The notes under the pieces are model-generated. The model made no database searches. It worked only from the letters and a program-made list of their open reading frames with translations, and was not told where the DNA came from. DNA of 64,000 bases from an uncultured Gammaproteobacteria bacterium (lineage in GTDB: Bacteria; Patescibacteriota; Microgenomatia; UBA1406; HO2-37-13b): the NCBI GenBank assembly GCA_964476245.1, contig CAYYYW010000001.1, positions 26,808 to 90,807 of the forward strand, given 5' to 3'. Of this stretch, positions 1,079 to 49,407 are shown piece after piece. The position numbers and the translations under genes were made by a program. Each line of letters begins with the position of its first letter. Position 1 is the stretch's first letter.

Positions 1079-2307
1079 ATTAGTGGTAAAAGCTTTTCTT
1101 TAATAATAGTTTCTAAGTTATATTTTTGTTTGGCTGATTTTTTTAATTGAATTATTTTATCAGTTTCTAAAAAATTTTTTATAAAAGAAGCGGTTTGTTC
1201 CGCTGTTTGTTTATTAATATCAACGCTAAGTAAATTGTTTCCACCAATTTCTTTAAAAACTTTTAGATTAGATACAAAAGCCGGCGTATTGGTTAAAGCT
1301 GCTTCTAATAAAGGAAGTCCAAAATTTTCACTTTTGGAAAAAAAGAAAACAAGATCGGAAAGATCATAAAGATCATGAATCTCGGAATTTTCCAAAAATC
1401 GGTTAAGGTAATCTTTTAAAAAAATCACATTATCTTTTAATTTCAGTTGGGTAATTTTTTTTAATAAAGTTTCATAGTATCCTAGATTTTTTCTATGAGC
1501 TGACGTTTGTCCACTAATTATGTATTTTATATCTGGGTAGTGTTTTTTTAGGAAAAAAACTATATCAAGGCAATAATCAAGGCTTTTTCTATATAAAATG
1601 TTTACTGGAGAGAAGATTAAAGGAAAATTATAAAGAAGCTGTTTTTCATTTACTATTCTCCAGATACTTTCATCTATCTCTAAGAATTTCTTTAAATCAA
1701 TCCCGTTGGAAATAACTTGAACTTTATTTTTTGGTATCGGCATAACTTGACACAAAAGTTCCTTAAAAGTTTCAGAGATAGCTATGTATGAAGCTTTTTC
1801 TACTGGCTCCATCAAAAGCTTTTTTTCTTCTGGATTAAGATTAACACCTTCTTTTTCTTTTAATATTGTTTCTCCGTTTATATAAGTTTGATCGTGAGTC
1901 CAAAAAAAGAACTTCTTAGTGGAATTTTTTTTGATGTAATCTTTTAAAAAATAGATAAAAGGAAGATTGTGAATTAATGTCATCATATTATGGACAATGA
2001 CAACATCAAGATTGTCAAGATACGGTTCTATCTTATTTTTTATATTTTGCGCAAGAGAATAAAAATCGTTATCTATAATGCCTTTTTCAACAATTTTTTC
2101 ATACAATTGAGGATTAAATCTTATAATAGATTGAATTTCTTCAATTCTCACAAAATTTATCTTGGGATTTTTTTCCTCTCCGTTACCTGAGATAACACTG
2201 ATTTCATAGTCCATCTCTGAAAGAATTTTTGCATGTTCTCTAATTAACATTTCTACTCCACCAATATTCGGAGGATAGGCATAATGCAATAAACCAATTT
2301 TTTTCAT
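1075..2307 (-). CDS. Glycosyltransferase, GT-B fold (GT4-like)
   Basis: 410-aa ORF. The C-terminal half (...SENFGLPLLEAALTNTPAFVSN...) resembles the sugar-nucleotide-binding half of GT-B enzymes. ATGA overlaps at both ends (1075..1078, 2304..2307). Confidence 0.6.
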   Translation of the reverse strand: MKKIGLLHYAYPPNIGGVEMLIREHAKILSEMDYEISVISGNGEEKNPKINFVRIEEIQSIIRFNPQLYEKIVEKGIIDNDFYSLAQNIKNKIEPYLDNLDVVIVHNMMTLIHNLPFIYFLKDYIKKNSTKKFFFWTHDQTYINGETILKEKEGVNLNPEEKKLLMEPVEKASYIAISETFKELLCQVMPIPKNKVQVISNGIDLKKFLEIDESIWRIVNEKQLLYNFPLIFSPVNILYRKSLDYCLDIVFFLKKHYPDIKYIISGQTSAHRKNLGYYETLLKKITQLKLKDNVIFLKDYLNRFLENSEIHDLYDLSDLVFFFSKSENFGLPLLEAALTNTPAFVSNLKVFKEIGGNNLLSVDINKQTAEQTASFIKNFLETDKIIQLKKSAKQKYNLETIIKEKLLPLI

Positions 2308-7762: not shown

Positions 7763-9532
7763 TTATTCAAAAGCTGAATGAATAAACGAGCTAAATTTAT
7801 CGTTTCTTTCCATCCGCTTTTTATAATCAATATCAACCGGACTATAAGAAATTTGGGGATGGACTCGAGGACTAAACCAATCTCTCAAATCAGTCAAGAC
7901 TTCACTAGCTTTACTACCTTCTCTATTAAGAACGTCTTGAAAATTATCCCACTGATTAATTTTATCACAAGCCGAGGCCGTGGATTCAGTCTTACCAAAT
8001 GACTCTCTTAAATTATCAGCTAAATAAATCAAGAATTCATTGGCTTCTTCGCATGAATCAAATACCCCTTGAGGAGTATGATTTAATATTGCTTCAATTA
8101 AGGTTTGGTTAATGTGGGCTTGACTATTAATCAACGCTTCTACGATTAATGAGCGAATTCCATCATCAGAACCTAGCCCAACATTATTAAGGATATTGAT
8201 AATAGTTGGTAAACAATAAGGCAGAAATAAATGAGAACCAACAATTAACTTTAAATGTGCGTTCATGTGCTTCTCTCCTGACATGACTCGTTTCGCTAAA
8301 GCAGTTATTTCTTCCCGAATGTTTTTGTTTCTCCACTCTTCAATTTCCCACGAACCTATAATTTGATGATCGCCAACATTACCCAACATAACGGTAAATT
8401 CGATGACTTTGGCAAGAGTCTCTTCAGAGTCGAACCGTTCTACCTCTCTAACACGAAAATCATAGTCGGTAAAATAAGGCAGAGCGTCAACAAAATTAAA
8501 AGCGATTGCTTTTTCTTCTTTAGACTTATCAACTAGGTGACATCTTAGCCTGTTCCCCCATTTTATATTATGAGTTGAGGCAAAAACACTAATATGATCG
8601 GCCATAAAAATAGCTATTTTTTTCATTAAATCATCTTTAATTTCTAGCGGATCTCCCGTCAATGAATAGAATACCAAGTCTACATCACCTAACGCGGCGG
8701 CTCCATCTGATAAAAATACCGCCGCCTCTTCGGTTATTTGTCGACCGGGAACAATTGAAAAATTGCCAACAAAAGAAGCCGGTAATTTAGACTGACATAA
8801 TCTCGCCAGTAATTCTCTCAGCTCGCTTGAAATAGCTTGATCAACATTAGTTAAGTTGGTTTCTTTAAGGAGCGAAAGTGCTTCTAACTTCCCTATCTCA
8901 CAATCTAAATCATTAATGACAGACTGCCAGTCAGACTCATTCCCTATCCATTTCTTTACTTCTGGCAACAGTAATTCTCGATAAAAGACACGATTATTTG
9001 AATATCCATCAGGAAAATTGCCTAAGAATATATCAGTAGCATGCTGACCAAATAAATCTTGCAACCGGACATGATAATCAAGCAACATCTGAAGTTTGTC
9101 TATTTCATTAACCGCCAAAACTAAAACTGATTCCTTGGCTAATTGATCACCTAAGTAAGGGATTTTCCTCAGCATAGCTGCTTTTCTCTCTAAAAAAGAT
9201 AAAGAATCGTTCTCACTTGGTAAAATGGTTAAACTAACAGATTTTTGATCAACATCTTGATTAACTAATTGTTTTCCATGTCTGGGGTCGCTTAATTCAT
9301 AAATTAAACCAGCCGCCACAATTGAATCTCGTTCGGGATAATCTGGCGGTAAAAGATTATTTAAGGCTAAAGCCACTCTTTGAGCATGGTTTAAGAAGGT
9401 GTCATAAGGATTGACGTTGCTTAGTTTATTAGCCAAACGCTCTCTTACCAAATTATAAGCTGTAAAAACTAAAGGATGATTTTCCTCTGTCTCTGTAAAA
9501 TATTTTTCTGCTTCGATAATATTTTGTGTCAT
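7763..9532 (-). CDS. Hypothetical protein, 589 aa, acidic, no recognisable catalytic motif
   Basis: Long uninterrupted ORF with an ATG start and TAA stop. Its composition (D/E/L/Q-rich, K-poor) differs from neighbouring K/I/N-rich proteins. The N-terminus (HAQRVALAL...AAGLIYELSD) only loosely resembles an HD domain, with HD replaced by YE. Confidence 0.5.
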   Translation of the reverse strand: MTQNIIEAEKYFTETEENHPLVFTAYNLVRERLANKLSNVNPYDTFLNHAQRVALALNNLLPPDYPERDSIVAAGLIYELSDPRHGKQLVNQDVDQKSVSLTILPSENDSLSFLERKAAMLRKIPYLGDQLAKESVLVLAVNEIDKLQMLLDYHVRLQDLFGQHATDIFLGNFPDGYSNNRVFYRELLLPEVKKWIGNESDWQSVINDLDCEIGKLEALSLLKETNLTNVDQAISSELRELLARLCQSKLPASFVGNFSIVPGRQITEEAAVFLSDGAAALGDVDLVFYSLTGDPLEIKDDLMKKIAIFMADHISVFASTHNIKWGNRLRCHLVDKSKEEKAIAFNFVDALPYFTDYDFRVREVERFDSEETLAKVIEFTVMLGNVGDHQIIGSWEIEEWRNKNIREEITALAKRVMSGEKHMNAHLKLIVGSHLFLPYCLPTIINILNNVGLGSDDGIRSLIVEALINSQAHINQTLIEAILNHTPQGVFDSCEEANEFLIYLADNLRESFGKTESTASACDKINQWDNFQDVLNREGSKASEVLTDLRDWFSPRVHPQISYSPVDIDYKKRMERNDKFSSFIHSAFE

Positions 9533-11091: not shown

Positions 11092-11847
11092 ATGAAAATA
11101 ACAATTTTATGTGAAAACGCAGCCGGTCATGAATTGGCCAGATACTGCTTAGCAGAATGGGGTTTTTCAGCTTTTGTTCAAGTAAACGACGTGAATATTC
11201 TTTTTGATACCGGTCATACAGAAGTTTATAAACATAATGCTGAACAACTCAAAATTGATTTAAATAATACTCATTTTGTTGTTTTATCTCATTATCACTG
11301 GGATCATACTGGTGGTTTACGATTCCATAATTTAAAAACAAAAAAGAAAATTATTCTTCACCCTCAAATCCTTGAAAAATTACCTCAAGATGAATCACAA
11401 AGAATCAGGCACGATTTTCAAATAGTGACATCAAATAAACCTCTCGAGTTTTCCAAAAATATTTATTATTTGGGAGAAATTCCAAGAAAAACGAATTTTG
11501 AAAAGGGTAGATACAAAGACGATCCTATGCTGGATGATTCCGCCTTGGCGATTAAAACAGCAAAAGGCGCTATAGTAATTACGGGTTGTTCTCACTCTGG
11601 TGTTTGTAATATCTGCCAATACGCTAAAGAAGTAACAGGACAAAAATTATATGCCGTACTTGGAGGACTTCACTTATTTGAAAATGATAAAAAAGCGATT
11701 GAAGGAACAATAAAATATTTTAGGACAGAGAAACCTAAATTCCTTTTTCCAATGCATTGTGTTGATCTTCCGGCGATGGTTGAATTTTACCATAATTTCG
11801 GATGCAAGAAGTATTCGTCAGGCGACACAATTCAACTTGATTGTTAG
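11092..11847 (+). CDS. MBL-fold metallo-hydrolase
   Basis: 251 aa with LSHYHWDHTGG, the HxHxDH metal-binding motif. TAG stop. Confidence 0.7.
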   Translation: MKITILCENAAGHELARYCLAEWGFSAFVQVNDVNILFDTGHTEVYKHNAEQLKIDLNNTHFVVLSHYHWDHTGGLRFHNLKTKKKIILHPQILEKLPQDESQRIRHDFQIVTSNKPLEFSKNIYYLGEIPRKTNFEKGRYKDDPMLDDSALAIKTAKGAIVITGCSHSGVCNICQYAKEVTGQKLYAVLGGLHLFENDKKAIEGTIKYFRTEKPKFLFPMHCVDLPAMVEFYHNFGCKKYSSGDTIQLDC

Positions 11848-18373: not shown

Positions 18374-18976
18374 ATGTTTAAAAAAAAATTAATAAAAATC
18401 GAAACGATCAATTTCCCTGCCAAATATGCCAATTTTTACCTAACAACATATGCTACTAAATATCCTGATCAACCGGACATGAAATATGTCATCGTTCTCC
18501 AAACGAAAAACCTGCCCCAAATTCCCTTGATTAGAATCCACTCTGCCTGTCTTTTTAGTGAAATTTTTAAATATAAATCTTGTGACTGCGATAACCAACT
18601 GGGAAAAAGTTTAAGATTGATCTCTCAAAAAAAAGGAATCTTTTTCTATTTGGATCAGGAAGGACGTGGCTATGGTATTTATAACAAAACCATTGAACTA
18701 AAACTCCAAGAACAAGGTTTAAATACCGTTGAAGCAAGCCAAAAGCTTCATTTGCCAATTGATAATAGAAAATATCACGTTGTTGCCCACATCTTAAAAC
18801 GAATGAACATTAACCGAGTGAAAATTATCACTAATAATCCTCAAAAAATAAAAGACCTAGAAAACGAAGGAATAAAAGTGGTCGAGCGAATAGTATTCAA
18901 ACCATTAATAAATAGACATAATTTAAAATACTTGAAGGTAAAAAAAGAACAGATGGGGCATTTAATTGATATTTAG
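18374..18976 (+). CDS. ribA: GTP cyclohydrolase II
   Basis: 200 aa. IRIHSACLFSEIFKYKSCDCDNQL (zinc Cys triad) and LDQEGRGYGIYNK match the RibA signature. TAG stop. Confidence 0.7.
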   Translation: MFKKKLIKIETINFPAKYANFYLTTYATKYPDQPDMKYVIVLQTKNLPQIPLIRIHSACLFSEIFKYKSCDCDNQLGKSLRLISQKKGIFFYLDQEGRGYGIYNKTIELKLQEQGLNTVEASQKLHLPIDNRKYHVVAHILKRMNINRVKIITNNPQKIKDLENEGIKVVERIVFKPLINRHNLKYLKVKKEQMGHLIDI

Positions 18977-20454: not shown

Positions 20455-21024
20455 ATGAAAGTCTTCTTCACCGCCTCGCATGAGGGAAAAAAATATTTTG
20501 AAAATTATTATAAAAAAATAACGGCCACCATCAAAAAGTTGGGATATGAACCGATGGAAGATGATATCTTAACTGTTTCAACTGCCAAATTTTTCGAAAA
20601 TTTAGAAAAAGGCGGAAAACAAACAAACATTGACTTATATAAAAGAAAGATGAAATCAATACAGGAGGCTGATATCTGTATATACGAGTGCAGTATTAAC
20701 AGCCTATCCTTGGGCTTTCTTATTGAAAAAACATTAGATCTTAATAAACCTACCATCGTTCTTTATTTAAAAGACAATATTCCTTATTTCTTATTGGGAG
20801 CCAACGAAGAAAAACTTATTTTGAAAAGTTACAACGACGACGATTTAAAGCAAATTTTGAAAGAAACATTGTTAGAAGCCCAAGGCATAAAAGACAAAAG
20901 GTTTAATTTTTTCATAAGCCCTGAACTTCTGTCCTATTTGAATAAAATAAGTAAGGCCCGCAGCATAACCAAATCAACCTTCATCAGAAATCTTCTCCTT
21001 GATCATATGAAAAAGAATAAGTAG
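20455..21024 (+). CDS. Nucleoside 2-deoxyribosyltransferase-like domain fused to a C-terminal ribbon-helix-helix (CopG-like) tail
   Basis: 189 aa. MKVFFTASHEGKKY...ADICIYECSINSLSLGFLIEKTLDLNKPTIVLY follows the NDT-like flavodoxin fold pattern. The C-terminus RFNFFISPELLSYLNKISKARSITKSTFIRNLLLDHMKK looks like an RHH. Confidence 0.45.
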   Translation: MKVFFTASHEGKKYFENYYKKITATIKKLGYEPMEDDILTVSTAKFFENLEKGGKQTNIDLYKRKMKSIQEADICIYECSINSLSLGFLIEKTLDLNKPTIVLYLKDNIPYFLLGANEEKLILKSYNDDDLKQILKETLLEAQGIKDKRFNFFISPELLSYLNKISKARSITKSTFIRNLLLDHMKKNK

Positions 21025-45148: not shown

Positions 45149-46192
45149 TCAAATAGAATTTAAATATATAACTGCCTGATCTTTGTTGTCTTTTGTCACC
45201 CCAATGCATTTTATTCTCAAAATTAGCGGTTTTCTCTCTTTGTCTGGTAGTAAAACCCCTTCAAATTTACCATAGTTAGCACCTCTTGTTTGTGTGTCTC
45301 TAATGCCTACTTCAAGTGATGGAGGTACAGAACTCATCAACTTTGTGTGAGTAAGATCATTGATCCCCCTTCTATTTCGCGCTTCGAGTGTCTGCATTAT
45401 TAAACCAACATTCCTTTGAACTCCTTCCCAACTAACTGGAGGGAATTTTAACCGACTATTAATCTTTATTTTCCTCTCTTTTTCTTCATCATATAATGCT
45501 TGGGCTTCAGAAATTACTTTATCATAATTAACTGGCGAAGGTAAATTTAATTTACTTTGATAATTTGCTCCATCTGCCTCTATCTTCATGGGGATAATTA
45601 CAACCTGCCATCCTCCAGTATGATATTGGTGCTCATATTCCTCGTCTGTTTTCATTATCTGTTGAGTCACTGCTTCCCACAATGTTGATCCTCCGTTTTT
45701 CTTCGTCTCACAAACGTCAATATTAGAGTTGCCCCCATGAATAATAAACGAACTTTCAAGAGGCTCTCCTTCTTTAAGAACATAAACCATTGCTGGGCCA
45801 TCGATTGCTTGAGCATTTAACCAAAATTTAAGTTGGGCTTTTGCTGCGTATGGTGATTCACTTGCTGGTAAAGGAATAATCGCGTCAATAATCCGAGCTG
45901 TTTGTGCCCCAAGAGGAACTCCCAATTCTTTAGCCAATTGAGCGAGGGTTAACTTTTGTTGATTTTCTCCTTGAGAGTCCTGACGTAAATGAAGAGATAA
46001 CTCTGGAGAGTAAATCGGAAATTCCTGATCACTGGTAACTTTTACCGGCGCAGCTACTTCTCTAGAGGTTTTTAACTCTCTATATAAATGATCGGGATAG
46101 GTTCCGGTTGTAGAAACAGAGATCTGTAAAGCATTATGAACTCCATCAGTAAGCACCGGGCAGATACTAAATCCTTCTACCTTCTGACACAC
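45149..46192 (-). CDS. Hypothetical protein. Probably the C-terminal part of a single roughly 1087-codon frame interrupted by TAG at 46364..46366
   Basis: The track start is GTG with no usable SD. The frame stays open for 57 further codons upstream, right up to the stop of 46364..48412, and it is the same frame (both ORF end coordinates are 1 mod 3). There is no ATG for about 190 codons after the TAG. Confidence 0.5.
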   Translation of the reverse strand: MCQKVEGFSICPVLTDGVHNALQISVSTTGTYPDHLYRELKTSREVAAPVKVTSDQEFPIYSPELSLHLRQDSQGENQQKLTLAQLAKELGVPLGAQTARIIDAIIPLPASESPYAAKAQLKFWLNAQAIDGPAMVYVLKEGEPLESSFIIHGGNSNIDVCETKKNGGSTLWEAVTQQIMKTDEEYEHQYHTGGWQVVIIPMKIEADGANYQSKLNLPSPVNYDKVISEAQALYDEEKERKIKINSRLKFPPVSWEGVQRNVGLIMQTLEARNRRGINDLTHTKLMSSVPPSLEVGIRDTQTRGANYGKFEGVLLPDKERKPLILRIKCIGVTKDNKDQAVIYLNSI

Positions 46193-46363
46193 TCCAGCCA
46201 GTAATTGAAAAAGGCCAGCCCGTTGTGATGCGCAAACGTTTTCGTACCCTGGTTTTGTTCCTCCAATATACTCACTCGGTAATCTCCAGTTTTGTAAGAA
46301 GTATTCTGCAATTGTTAATGCTTCCCGATGGGGTGGAGGTTGACGCCTAAAACGTAGATCCTT

Positions 46364-48412
46364 CTACTCAATATTGTAACAAGCGTGGTAAAGTTGTTTA
46401 AAAGAAAATAATCCGGGCTTATCTCCTGTTTGATCTTCTGTAAAAATAACCAGGGCAGCCACCAGACGCTGTAACAAAATATCATCTTGATAAGCTCCGC
46501 AAAGAAGTTGTTCTTCATAGTGCATTATTTTTTTCCGGACCAACTTTTCTTCTCCCTCCGGTAATTCTGTGCTATAAGACGGGTTTAAATCTTCTTTTAT
46601 CACTGCTTCCCACATCCTTTCCCGCTCTCCCGGCCAAGCAAAACGGGCAGCTCTTTCATGATAGATTTTGACTAAATCGATAAGTAAGCCGTCGTATCCT
46701 TCTTTTGTAATTTCAGATTCATCAGAATTAACTATTAATTCTCTGGTTGCCCCTATCCATTCGGTATAGGTATCTATGGCATCCTGGTATTTATTGTTAC
46801 TTTCATACATTTTAGCTAATAAACGATAATAACGTTGTAGTCGCTCTAACGCCTGGAGGTAAGCCTCACTTAAAATCCCTTTATCTATTTGTTCATCTGG
46901 CTTGATCTGATGAGCAATAAATTTTGTCAGCTCTGCTCCCATTAATACTAAAGCTTCATGCTCTCGTGGTAAAATAGACCCATCCTCTCTTCCTAAAGTT
47001 TGGGTAATTGCTTGATCCACTTGATTAGATAATTCGTTAACAAATGAAAATATTTTTGGAAACTCTCCGATTGCTTGAGGTTTTAAATAATCACTCTCAA
47101 ATAACTCTTCAAGGTGATGAGTGATATTCTTGGCTTCTTTGACAGTATTGCCACTATGATAATTCATCGTATCAATCCAAACACAATGACAATAACACTC
47201 CTGCGCTCTCTGTCTGTATAATTGTCCATTTTCTCTCTCAAGATCATTATCTCTCGCCAGAATTGCATCAGTGTCGGCGGCGGTGTGTAATATGTCGCCT
47301 ATTTCTTGAACATCTGGTTGGCTGAGATTAATATGGATGTCGTCCTTACAAGTAGCCGTTATATGATTAACGATTGGATTAATAATTCTTTCGATATAAA
47401 TTGCTGTGTTCCTTTTAACTTCATCGTTTACTCCTTTAGAATAATTAGTAAATGGTCTTTGAACTTCTCTGATATTTCTAAGACACTGTTGAGCCATTTC
47501 TCCTCTTAAGCCATGTTGGTCCAGATCAACTCTAAGAGCTGAAAGATCAACCTGAACTAGCTTTTCAAGATTTTTAACTAATCTATCAATATCGTAGGCT
47601 TCATTTAAAAGAGCATTGGCATTTGATGGCATTGAGGCATGGATTTGTCCGTCTAAACAGTGGAAAACTGCTTCATCTTTTAAATGGTTTAGACTTTTGC
47701 TTATCTTAAGTCTGTCTGGTGAGGAATCAACAATATGATAATTATCAAGTCTGGAAAAAATCTCTTCTGCTTGAGATACTGCAGTTATAAAAGAAAATTT
47801 CTCTGCCGGAGTAAGTTCTTGTGCTTGACGAATATAATTTTTTAGTCCATCAATATCGTATATCCTGTAATCATCGCGTAATAGAATGCCGGGTAAAATT
47901 TCAATAACATCATTCGCCATCTTGTTTGTTGTTCTATCTTGAAGCACCGTCTCACCTTGCCCAACAACTTCATTAACATAGTCCCATGCTTCTTGTTTAA
48001 TCCCATCTCTCATTTTTTTATATTCATCAGTAATATAATAAACATCGTTACTATATTGCGAAAAAGCCCGTAATCGAAGACGAAAAACTCGCCTGTCCTC
48101 AGGATATCTTTCTGTAATATCGTCTAATACTTGGGAGAAGTATGGATGCTGAAGCTCTTGGCAGGCTGCCAAATGAGTCCAATTTGGGATATATCTCTCA
48201 AGCGTATCTAGAATAAAGGCTCTTTGTTTTGGATCGCCGTTTTCCAACCGCTGATCAATACCTTCGTATGCTTTCATGGCTTGCCATTCTTCACCAAGAT
48301 ATAAATGCTCAATGTGTCTTTTTATATCTCGGCGGGCTTCTTTAGGAGGTAAACCAAGACGATAAAGCGTACGCTCAGGAATGATTGTTGCTCCACGAAT
48401 ATGTTCTGTCAT
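46364..48412 (-). CDS. Hypothetical protein, 682 aa (N-terminal part of the interrupted frame)
   Basis: ATG start and long uninterrupted ORF. Acidic and helix-rich, with composition unlike the neighbours. Ends in TAG. Confidence 0.6.
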   Translation of the reverse strand: MTEHIRGATIIPERTLYRLGLPPKEARRDIKRHIEHLYLGEEWQAMKAYEGIDQRLENGDPKQRAFILDTLERYIPNWTHLAACQELQHPYFSQVLDDITERYPEDRRVFRLRLRAFSQYSNDVYYITDEYKKMRDGIKQEAWDYVNEVVGQGETVLQDRTTNKMANDVIEILPGILLRDDYRIYDIDGLKNYIRQAQELTPAEKFSFITAVSQAEEIFSRLDNYHIVDSSPDRLKISKSLNHLKDEAVFHCLDGQIHASMPSNANALLNEAYDIDRLVKNLEKLVQVDLSALRVDLDQHGLRGEMAQQCLRNIREVQRPFTNYSKGVNDEVKRNTAIYIERIINPIVNHITATCKDDIHINLSQPDVQEIGDILHTAADTDAILARDNDLERENGQLYRQRAQECYCHCVWIDTMNYHSGNTVKEAKNITHHLEELFESDYLKPQAIGEFPKIFSFVNELSNQVDQAITQTLGREDGSILPREHEALVLMGAELTKFIAHQIKPDEQIDKGILSEAYLQALERLQRYYRLLAKMYESNNKYQDAIDTYTEWIGATRELIVNSDESEITKEGYDGLLIDLVKIYHERAARFAWPGERERMWEAVIKEDLNPSYSTELPEGEEKLVRKKIMHYEEQLLCGAYQDDILLQRLVAALVIFTEDQTGDKPGLFSFKQLYHACYNIE

Positions 48413-48546: not shown

Positions 48547-49248
48547 TTATGTATTCAATATAACCAGTTCATTAAACATGCTCTGTTCATCATCTTCCCA
48601 TTTTCCGGTCCAAGATAATGAAAATTCGTGAGAAATTTTTTTGGCATTATTGCTATAAATAGATATTTTGATCATATATTTCCCTGGAGTTAAACAATCC
48701 CACTGAGAATAGTATCTTTCAGGAAGTTCAAAGATAAACTTGTTGGTTGCTTGATCTCTATTAGAAAATCCTTTATATACGGAATCGTAATTGTCATCCG
48801 GATGCTGAATTCTACCTAAGTCACAATACATTTCTTTTTCTGGCTGGATTGTTCTTTTGTAAGGATCTCTAATTCCTGACCATTTTAAATTTACAGGTGA
48901 AAATTTTTTATTCTCTACCATCTCACCAGCGTTATTTTCTTTAAAAATCTTTTCTAGAAACACTTCGCACTCCTCTGCTTTAGTTTTGCCAAAATTCTCA
49001 ACTAAAAACCTAAAATAATAAACGGGAAAGTCCGAATTTTTACCAACCCTCCGTGTTTTATGACAATCTGGAGGTGCCAATTTAAATTTTATTCTTAATT
49101 TTGGCGAGAAGTATTTATGTTTCAACTTTTCAGCTAGATAAGGAGCATAAATAGCTATTATTCCCAAGAAAAGCGTCGAGCCAATCTGTACCCAGTTACT
49201 AATAGATATGCTCGAATTCATCAAAGCTGAACTTGAAGAAATTTTCAT
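48547..49248 (-). CDS. Hypothetical membrane-anchored protein, 233 aa
   Basis: ATG at 49248 (MKISSSSALMN...), one TM (WVQIGSTLFLGIIAIYAPYL). The track extension to 49326 reads through tRNA-Gln. Confidence 0.45.
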   Translation of the reverse strand: MKISSSSALMNSSISISNWVQIGSTLFLGIIAIYAPYLAEKLKHKYFSPKLRIKFKLAPPDCHKTRRVGKNSDFPVYYFRFLVENFGKTKAEECEVFLEKIFKENNAGEMVENKKFSPVNLKWSGIRDPYKRTIQPEKEMYCDLGRIQHPDDNYDSVYKGFSNRDQATNKFIFELPERYYSQWDCLTPGKYMIKISIYSNNAKKISHEFSLSWTGKWEDDEQSMFNELVILNT

Positions 49249-49254
49249 ATTTAG

Positions 49255-49325
49255 CTGCGAGGCAGGGATTCGAACCCCGATTACTTGGTTCAGAGCCAAG
49301 TGTGCTACCATTACACCACCTCGCA
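49255..49325 (-). tRNA. tRNA-Gln (anticodon CTG)
   Basis: The reverse complement TGCGAGGTGGTGTAATGGTAGCACACTTGGCTCTGAACCAAGTAATCGGGGTTCGAATCCCTGCCTCGCAG has a U1-A72 acceptor, anticodon stem CTTGG/CCAAG and loop CTCTGAA. Confidence 0.8.
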
Positions 49326-49407
49326 AAAATCATTCAACTCCAATTTTACCAAATTAAAATTGATTTTAGATAGGAAGAAACTACTTCTTGGTCTTACCCG
49401 CCACTAT

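Follow-up and report, generated by a model that had tools for sequence, protein, structure and literature searches.

The minus strand of the window, by which we mean the whole 64,000-nucleotide stretch of DNA analysed here, contains at positions 45149-48412 a frame of 1087 codons whose translation shows a single internal stop in addition to the terminal one. The question that this locus raises is whether it holds one gene or two and, if one, how its internal stop is read. The stop is a TAG at codon 683 (46364-46366, context GAG-TAG-AAG). It is preceded by an upstream part of 682 codons that begins at ATG 48412-48410 (46367..48412, minus strand), for which the gene callers of several sources give exactly a 682-aa product and whose AT-rich leader, TATAGGATATAGTATAATTACATTATTCTT, is typical for the genome. 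It is followed by a linker of 57 codons (46193..46363, minus strand), in frame with both ORFs, that contains neither a stop nor an ATG, GTG or TTG. The first start candidate after the TAG is a GTG at 46192-46190, which opens a downstream part of 347 codons extending to the terminal stop (45149..46192, minus strand), and the first ATG lies 191 codons past the TAG. Translation thus bore out the sequence-only reading of this DNA, in which a lone in-frame TAG split a frame of about 1087 codons, the frame stayed open for 57 codons into ORF 45149..46192, and no ATG followed for about 190 codons.

The interrupted frame and its TAG

At the base composition of this DNA (35.5% GC, stop probability 0.070 per codon), the chance of 57 open codons is ∼1.6%. 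The coding score of the linker is +8.3 bits in frame 0, whereas the two alternative frames give −15 and −21; in this it resembles the rest of the gene. When neighbouring ORFs in the same frame, both of at least 120 aa, were collected genome-wide (n = 46 pairs), the start lay more than 14 codons past the stop in a single pair, namely 45149-48412. In the two further TAG pairs whose ATG lies far off, the ORFs are unrelated neighbouring genes. The gene also gave only chance matches of 16–20 nt when compared with its own genome by blastn-short, on which grounds an in-frame palindromic repeat element at the TAG was rejected; the result also argues against a template copy of the DGR type.

A sequencing or assembly error, with a sense codon in the true genome, had been named as one possible origin of the TAG, and the source is indeed a metagenome-assembled genome (MAG) of 49 contigs with a contamination estimate of 5.9% and a completeness of 95%. 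Five other assemblies (JGI 3300028191, Logan SRR8437217, Logan SRR8437287, ENA ERZ27248920 and ENA ERZ27248939) are nevertheless 100% identical over the gene, TAG included. They come from different pipelines and at least two different SRA runs, with 1.4–3.3 kb matched base for base. An artefact is effectively excluded by these assemblies and in our estimate extremely improbable; the TAG is real.

A rare family of Microgenomatia proteins

An exhaustive HMMER scan, the only search that found relatives, yielded eight distinct distant homologues (P0005-P0009, G112/L008, L012, which is the same protein as G731/L031, and G545/L032). They have about 20–25% identity and belong to the class Microgenomatia. 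The complete ones are 883–939 aa long, P0008 being a partial sequence of 608 aa. Their contigs include JACQMD010000037, from a Candidatus Roizmanbacteria MAG, and JGI Ga0155407_107. All eight are single, uninterrupted proteins that align across both the TAG and the linker, and none is split into two genes; the proposal that the two ORFs are one gene is therefore upheld, and the ancestral gene was one ORF. In the family alignment the TAG falls in a hydrophilic linker of variable length between two conserved helices, and its column holds sense codons or a gap throughout the eight homologues, so the stop is not conserved.

The window copy is collinear with the family between about residue 340 and its C-terminus and shares with it a TPR-like repeat, a VE(E/D)P helix, an IAxFLxxGW helix, a KEGxxxxSFI beta core and a C-terminal GxxYGxF motif. 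It differs from the rest of the family in having about 190 additional N-terminal residues and in being the sole copy with an internal stop. The linker itself carries a family motif, REALTIAEYFLQNW (about 46268-46321, minus strand), which corresponds in the alignments to RLxxIAxFLxxGW of the homologues; A702 is invariant and the W is common to most homologues.

The upstream part is helical throughout in the AF2 secondary structure, at low confidence, and no signal peptide is apparent in it by eye. The one module of the protein that appears recognisable is a single TPR-like repeat at about residues 526–569 (46706..46837, minus strand). It was suggested by weak TPR matches of residues 526–569 in a phmmer search of the PDB, by a match of the family profile to consensus-TPR chains (E = 4.8e-9, profile positions 338–370), and by matches of the homologues to Pfam TPR_1/2/8 at the equivalent place, all below the gathering threshold. 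The window protein had no Pfam match and hence no TPR-repeat membership at the gathering threshold.

The most conserved block of the family lies downstream of the TAG, at about residues 878–960 (45533..45781, minus strand; VLKEGExxxSFIxxxxxxxIDxxE...LWE...H...G..Q...P). Its BLOSUM similarity is the highest of all regions, and its invariant columns are K880, E881, G882, F889, I890, I898, S909, E924, H928, G933, P941, P958 and P960. Across the query and its homologues, 22 of the 32 invariant columns lie downstream of the TAG. An AF2 model of the C-terminal part (4-row alignment) is beta-rich, with a pLDDT of 46. No fold was assigned because a Foldseek search against the PDB gave nothing below E = 0.25. 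The family would have a long helical part that includes a single TPR-like repeat, and after it a beta-rich domain at the C-terminus.

Sequence searches with both halves against Pfam, NCBIfam, PHROGs and the PDB found no family, and a word-indexed protein search with the read-through protein, the family alignment and P0006 returned nothing beyond P0006 itself. A search for related loci with a second family alignment gave one locus per collection. The viral contigs searched held no relatives, and a viral origin was rejected. The neighbours of the homologues elsewhere are unrelated (BipA/Obg, glycosyltransferases, SDR), and no homologue of the gene was found within the 1.5-kb flanks of the M16 peptidase orthologues in relatives (49–63% identity, tblastn). 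Searches of the 24 other species genomes of the taxonomic family and of 16 further genomes of the order likewise did not find the gene; the set of 199,900 species representatives contains no other genome of the genus. The gene is thus accessory, which makes its loss plausible. It appears to be a member of a rare, uncharacterised family of ∼900-aa cytoplasmic Microgenomatia (CPR/Patescibacteria) proteins.

Decoding of TAG in this genome

TAG is a normal stop here. It ends 117 of 752 long ORFs, and past a TAG stop the frame meets its next stop at a median distance of 9 codons, equal to that for TAA and TGA. The stops at 11845..11847, 18974..18976 and 21022..21024, which had been cited as genuine, are all three TAG. 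The genome has no suppressor tRNA: the search that the earlier reading had proposed for a tRNA(CUA) found no anticodon CUA among the 44 tRNAs detected by ARAGORN in the whole genome (95% complete). A search of the genome for PylS gave nothing above noise. RF1 is present, with its PxT (PKT) and GGQ motifs. Genome-wide reassignment of TAG, of the pyrrolysine or code-15 type, has the lone in-frame TAG in its favour and nothing further. Against it stand the 117 ORFs that end in TAG with normal spacing to the next stop, the single interrupted gene in the genome, the lack of a tRNA-CUA and of PylS, and the retention of RF1. We regard its probability as close to nil, and reassignment is refuted as far as a 95%-complete genome allows.

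RF1 is only 229 aa long and matches positions 114–342 of the 361-position prfA model, so that domain 1 is missing. This short form is common to all 25 relatives searched, and it stands beside an essential lack of Shine-Dalgarno (SD) use as a lineage-wide feature of translation. The literature searched gave no account of in-frame stops or of release factors in CPR bacteria. The two features together may merit a study of their own, which would bear on the leakiness of UAG in the lineage.

The short RF1 might favour a leaky or programmed read-through in which some of the ribosomes decode UAG with a near-cognate tRNA, such as that for Gln, Lys, Glu or Tyr, so that 682-aa and 1087-aa isoforms would both arise. 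In favour of this, the frame is kept perfectly for 404 codons past the stop, the linker is coding-like, and in E. coli UAG is regarded as comparatively leaky when an A comes next. However, the short RF1 is found in all of these relatives and yet TAG is a common ordinary stop, and A at +4, which the interrupted gene shares, is the commonest context of normal TAG stops here (46 of 117). The tRNA-CUA is absent, the stop is absent from all homologues and hence not conserved, and no other gene in the genome is of this kind. The RNA around and downstream of the TAG is not unusually stable either (fold z = −1.18 for the 151-nt region as a whole), and no element was detected with Rfam. The small perfect hairpin GUAGA-AGGA-UCUAC at 46354..46367 (minus strand), whose 5′ arm includes the TAG, is probably due to chance. 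We consider read-through very unlikely. The more specific proposal that the TAG works as a leaky stop with a function, in a regulated two-isoform arrangement that arose newly in this species and is made possible by incomplete UAG termination with an RF1 lacking domain 1, is in our judgement highly unlikely; if it were true, one gene would give the 682-aa helical protein, with the full 1087-aa form as its rarer product.

Fate of the codons downstream of the TAG

Because error is effectively excluded, reassignment and a suppressor tRNA are unsupported, and leaky read-through is a minority option, the most likely explanation is a nonsense mutation. We think it probable that the mutation is recent and fixed and that the accessory gene in which it lies now gives a helical product of 682 aa. 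A single-base change would have created the TAG in a lineage-specific accessory gene, and it is in the consensus of every assembly examined. Translation from ATG 48412 would then stop at the TAG to give the 682-aa helical fragment, and the 404 downstream codons would be a remnant that has not yet decayed and that sees little translation, if any. The downstream part is thus presumably not expressed, and the mutation is presumably recent on an evolutionary scale. In these 404 codons there is no second stop and no frameshift, and the invariant residues are kept as well downstream as N-terminally (query/homologue identity ratio 0.64 versus 0.66). Such intactness would fit a very recent mutation, but a C-terminal part that is still expressed and under selection would explain it equally well.

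Alternatively, the gene may have undergone functional fission, in which the 682-aa helical protein and a beta-rich protein from the C-terminal part would both work and act together as separate polypeptides, with the C-terminal protein starting at GTG 46192 or a nearby near-cognate codon. The C-terminal part is intact with its conserved residues kept, and its 347-aa product is reported by every gene caller. The GTG, at residue 741, may lie close to a possible domain boundary, since in a whole-protein AF2 model of low confidence (3-row alignment, pLDDT 39) helices end near residue 745 and strands begin near 760; the TAG itself falls within the helical region, in a linker of variable length. The linker (residues 684–740) is also the region least like the homologues, which would fit a loss of its translation (BLOSUM mean 0.04, versus 1.19 among the homologues). 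However, residues 741–860 diverge nearly as much (0.20), and similarity therefore does not change abruptly at 741. A match to an extended −10-like promoter has its end 7 nt ahead of the TAG, but shuffled sequences give such matches at least as often, and the promoter and terminator scan gave matches at chance level only.

The start of the downstream part argues further against fission. GTG 46192 is the only canonical start candidate there and does not appear credible, as it seems to lack the initiation signals typical of the genome. The 30 nt preceding it are GC-rich and atypical (53%, whereas real leaders average 23% and only 0.9% of genes attain such a value), and of 752 long ORFs only 32 have GTG as their first start candidate. 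The sequence-only reading had also pointed to the missing spaced SD at this GTG. The GTG start stands as described, but the missing SD carries no weight as an argument because 576 of 676 confident genes of the genome have no SD-like motif. A product starting at 741 would, in addition, lose the conserved IAxFLxxGW helix, and the 171-nt gap is open and coding-like, unlike a settled intergenic spacer. No homologue is split, and no close relative carries the gene. We therefore consider fission unlikely and favour the nonsense mutation.

For annotation, the 682-aa and 347-aa ORFs given by every pipeline are best treated as one interrupted gene and not as two hypothetical proteins, and the case should not count as evidence of amber recoding in CPR bacteria. 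The work also newly defines a very rare family of ∼900-aa Microgenomatia proteins with no relative in Pfam, NCBIfam or the PDB.

Several known systems invite comparison. Read-through of a stop codon, with a C-terminally extended isoform as its product, is known from the coat/A1 proteins of phage Q-beta, at a UGA, and from leaky bacterial stops. The locus resembles the Q-beta type in its long coding-like frame directly past a single stop, but its stop is UAG and not UGA and is unconserved, and the analysis showed neither a stimulatory structure nor a special context. With code-15 phages that have suppressor tRNAs, and with the pyrrolysine system, it shares an in-frame TAG inside a gene; unlike in those systems, TAG is a frequent true terminator here, a single gene is affected, tRNA-CUA and PylS are both missing, and RF1 is kept. 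CPR genomes are streamlined and usually have few pseudogenes, which counts against a nonsense pseudogene. The locus accordingly differs from ordinary nonsense pseudogenes in that its host, a groundwater-type bacterium, has a streamlined 1.1-Mb CPR genome, in which pseudogenes are usually few, and in that the 24 family and 16 order genomes searched offered no close orthologue by which to date the event. It resembles ordinary nonsense pseudogenes and truncation alleles in its one premature stop within an otherwise intact frame, its uninterrupted homologues, a downstream part without start signals of its own, and its place in an accessory, lineage-specific gene.

An open reading frame interrupted by a single TAG

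A frame of 1087 codons on the minus strand of the window, from 48412 to 45149, is broken once, by a TAG at 46364-46366 (codon 683; context AAT ATT GAG TAG AAG GAT), and translation of 45149-48412 bore out the claim of the sequence-only reading that there is only one internal stop. The next 57 codons (684-740) are open and are free of ATG, GTG and TTG; the earliest candidate start is the GTG at 46192 (GTG741), and the first ATG lies 191 codons beyond the TAG; both distances agree with the earlier counts of 57 and about 190. At 35.5% GC, the chance of 57 random codons staying open is ∼1.6%. Log-odds scoring by codon usage, with 475 long ORFs as the training set, gave the linker +8.3 bits in frame 0 versus −15 and −21 bits in the other frames, within the range of the remaining gene. 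When all in-frame, stop-separated ORF pairs (each ORF ≥120 codons) were listed for the 1.135-Mb assembly, 45 of 46 had a start ≤14 codons from the stop, like ordinary abutting genes, with the split gene the sole outlier. We conclude that the interrupted frame is real and exceeds chance expectation. Two further pairs separated by a TAG, in which the ATG is distant, proved to be unrelated neighbours and not split genes. In one, a tRNA and a phosphoribosyltransferase come after an O-antigen-ligase-like membrane protein; in the other, non-coding sequence lies beyond a PaaX-like gene.

A sequencing or assembly error, one cause offered by the sequence-only reading, did not stand. Five other contigs (JGI 3300028191; Logan SRR8437217 and SRR8437287; ENA ERZ27248920 and ERZ27248939) showed 100% identity to the window, TAG included, along the 1.4-3.3 kb they cover, and several sources record the exact 682-aa and 347-aa products, two 347-aa records differing solely in whether the GTG start is written M or V. 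This agreement, across several assemblers and no fewer than two separate sequencing runs, makes an artefact very unlikely, and the TAG allele is the consensus in all samples behind the five contigs.

Distant homologues and the ancestral gene

No relative of the protein turned up in Pfam, NCBIfam, PHROG or PDB, among 40 genomes from the organism's family and order, or in any of the 24 other species genomes of that family. When 1.84 billion cluster representatives were scanned exhaustively with HMMER, five distant relatives emerged (P0005-P0009; E 5e-16 to 5e-7; 20-30% identity), two of which align in one stretch, from residue ∼324-364 to 945-960, spanning codon 683. Genome and contig scans added copies in the Candidatus Roizmanbacteria MAG JACQMD010000037 (the protein already listed as P0008), JGI contig Ga0155407_107 and the genomes G112, G545 and G731. 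None of the eight distinct homologues, 883-939 aa where complete, has an internal stop. The TAG maps to a short hydrophilic linker of variable length between two conserved helices, the first being A(I/V)xxxVE(E/D)P in the family and ALVIFTEDQ in the window, and the second RLxxIAxFLxxGW in the family and REALTIAEYFLQNW in the window; 22 of 32 invariant alignment columns lie downstream of the TAG. With eight uninterrupted homologues and a post-TAG stretch homologous to a family helix, the earlier proposal that the two ORFs are one gene is upheld. The ancestral state was one gene, and the 57-codon linker either was once coding sequence or still is. Among other genomes sampled, the family was present in 3 of 400 from the class and 2 of 400 from the phylum; it was not found in viral contigs, and it adjoins genes that are unrelated from one copy to another.

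No signal peptide was apparent by eye, and the only recognisable module was one TPR-like repeat (residues 526-569). The AF2 models were poor (pLDDT 39 for the whole protein, 46 for the C-terminal part; alignments of only 3-4 rows); at this low pLDDT both agree on a helical protein up to residue ∼745 followed by a beta-rich C-terminal domain, and Foldseek gave no match in PDB (best E = 0.25). A scaffold or adaptor with a ligand-binding beta domain would be our guess. The window copy has ∼190 more N-terminal residues than any homologue (48412-47400, minus strand; residues ∼1-340), comprising helical segments at alignment residues 1-140, 226-262 and 295-320, for which no relatives were detectable anywhere. 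Just upstream, an ORF at 48547-49326 (minus strand; 233-259 aa by start chosen) had no Pfam hit; its longest version overlaps a tRNA-Gln(CTG) gene at 49254-49325, and the real start must therefore be the shorter one.

Decoding of TAG

TAG is a genuine stop here, as the sequence-only reading had stated from other ORFs, ending 117 of 752 long ORFs (TAA 465, TGA 170), and the following in-frame stop comes at a median of 9 codons after TAG, 9 after TAA and 8 after TGA. The search proposed earlier for a suppressor tRNA(CUA) found none among the 44 tRNAs and tmRNA called by ARAGORN in the genome, and a PylS model returned only weak class-II synthetase noise, likewise in most control genomes. ARAGORN also called a tRNA-Ile with anticodon TAT outside the window (contig C12 of assembly G000, 1944-2018, minus strand); this is an uncommon bacterial AUA reader, the usual one being a lysidine-modified CAU tRNA. 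RF2 passes the curated cut-off at full length. RF1 (prfA; contig C18 of G000, 8386-9042, minus strand, outside the window; locus L013, 1489-2178, minus strand) is 229 aa long, keeps a PxT-type motif (RIPKTE; PKT) and GGQ, and matches positions 114-342 of a 361-position model, without N-terminal domain 1. A search in 25 relatives from three families of the order gave the same short RF1 (229-257 aa) in every one, and it is therefore a lineage trait not tied to the split gene; a literature search found no description of it. TAG is not read differently in this organism: it is common as an ORF end, a single gene is interrupted and tRNA-CUA is lacking in the genome. Artefact and code change, even together, are highly improbable.

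Leaky read-through of the TAG is also improbable, though less so. The base at +4 is A, as it most often is after ordinary TAG stops in the genome (46 of 117), and the 151 nt around and after the TAG folded no better than shuffles (z = −1.18) and matched no Rfam family. The TAG does form part of the 5′ arm of a 5-bp hairpin without mismatches (GUAGA-AGGA-UCUAC; 46354-46367, minus strand), probably by chance because the surrounding region is not unusually structured.

Expression and state of the downstream half

Another possibility is functional fission into two working genes. The sequence-only reading had pointed to a GTG start without a spaced Shine-Dalgarno (SD) sequence. As an argument this fails, since 576 of 676 confident ATG starts lack an SD-like motif (spacing 3-12 nt) and the genome is essentially without SD use; the GTG leader is nonetheless atypical. 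Leaders in this genome are A/T-rich (mean GC 23% over the 30 nt upstream of the start), with A enriched from −11 to −3 and T at −1 in 58%, whereas GC is 53% across the 30 nt preceding GTG741, a level that only 0.9% of genes attain. Moreover, just 32 of 752 long ORFs have a GTG as their first start candidate, the near-cognate ATT codons at residues 701 and 716 stand in no better context, and a promoter-like match of the extended −10 type (TTTAAA, 18 nt, TG-n-TACAAT; 46373-46402, minus strand) that ends 7 nt upstream of the TAG belongs to a class no commoner in the region than in shuffles (12 vs 11.1). For these reasons independent expression of the downstream half does not appear to be supported.

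That half is nevertheless intact, with no second stop or frameshift, consistent with fission or continued selection. Query-homologue identity relative to homologue-homologue identity was 0.64 for residues 741-1087 versus 0.66 for 340-682; no decay was detectable. Similarity is lowest in the linker (BLOSUM mean 0.04) but nearly as low in 741-860 (0.20); the variable middle of the family lies here, with no sharp boundary. Variation among the compared assemblies was zero, and no close orthologue was found. By our own estimate, ∼1-2% of neutral divergence must accumulate before a second disrupting mutation is likely; thus an intact remnant agrees as well with continued selection as with a recent event. 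We regard fission as rather unlikely, and the most likely explanation, which we favor with some confidence, is a nonsense mutation of the ordinary kind, recent and fixed, in a rare accessory gene. Such a mutation would leave a 682-aa product, predicted to be helical, and an untranslated, still-intact downstream remnant.
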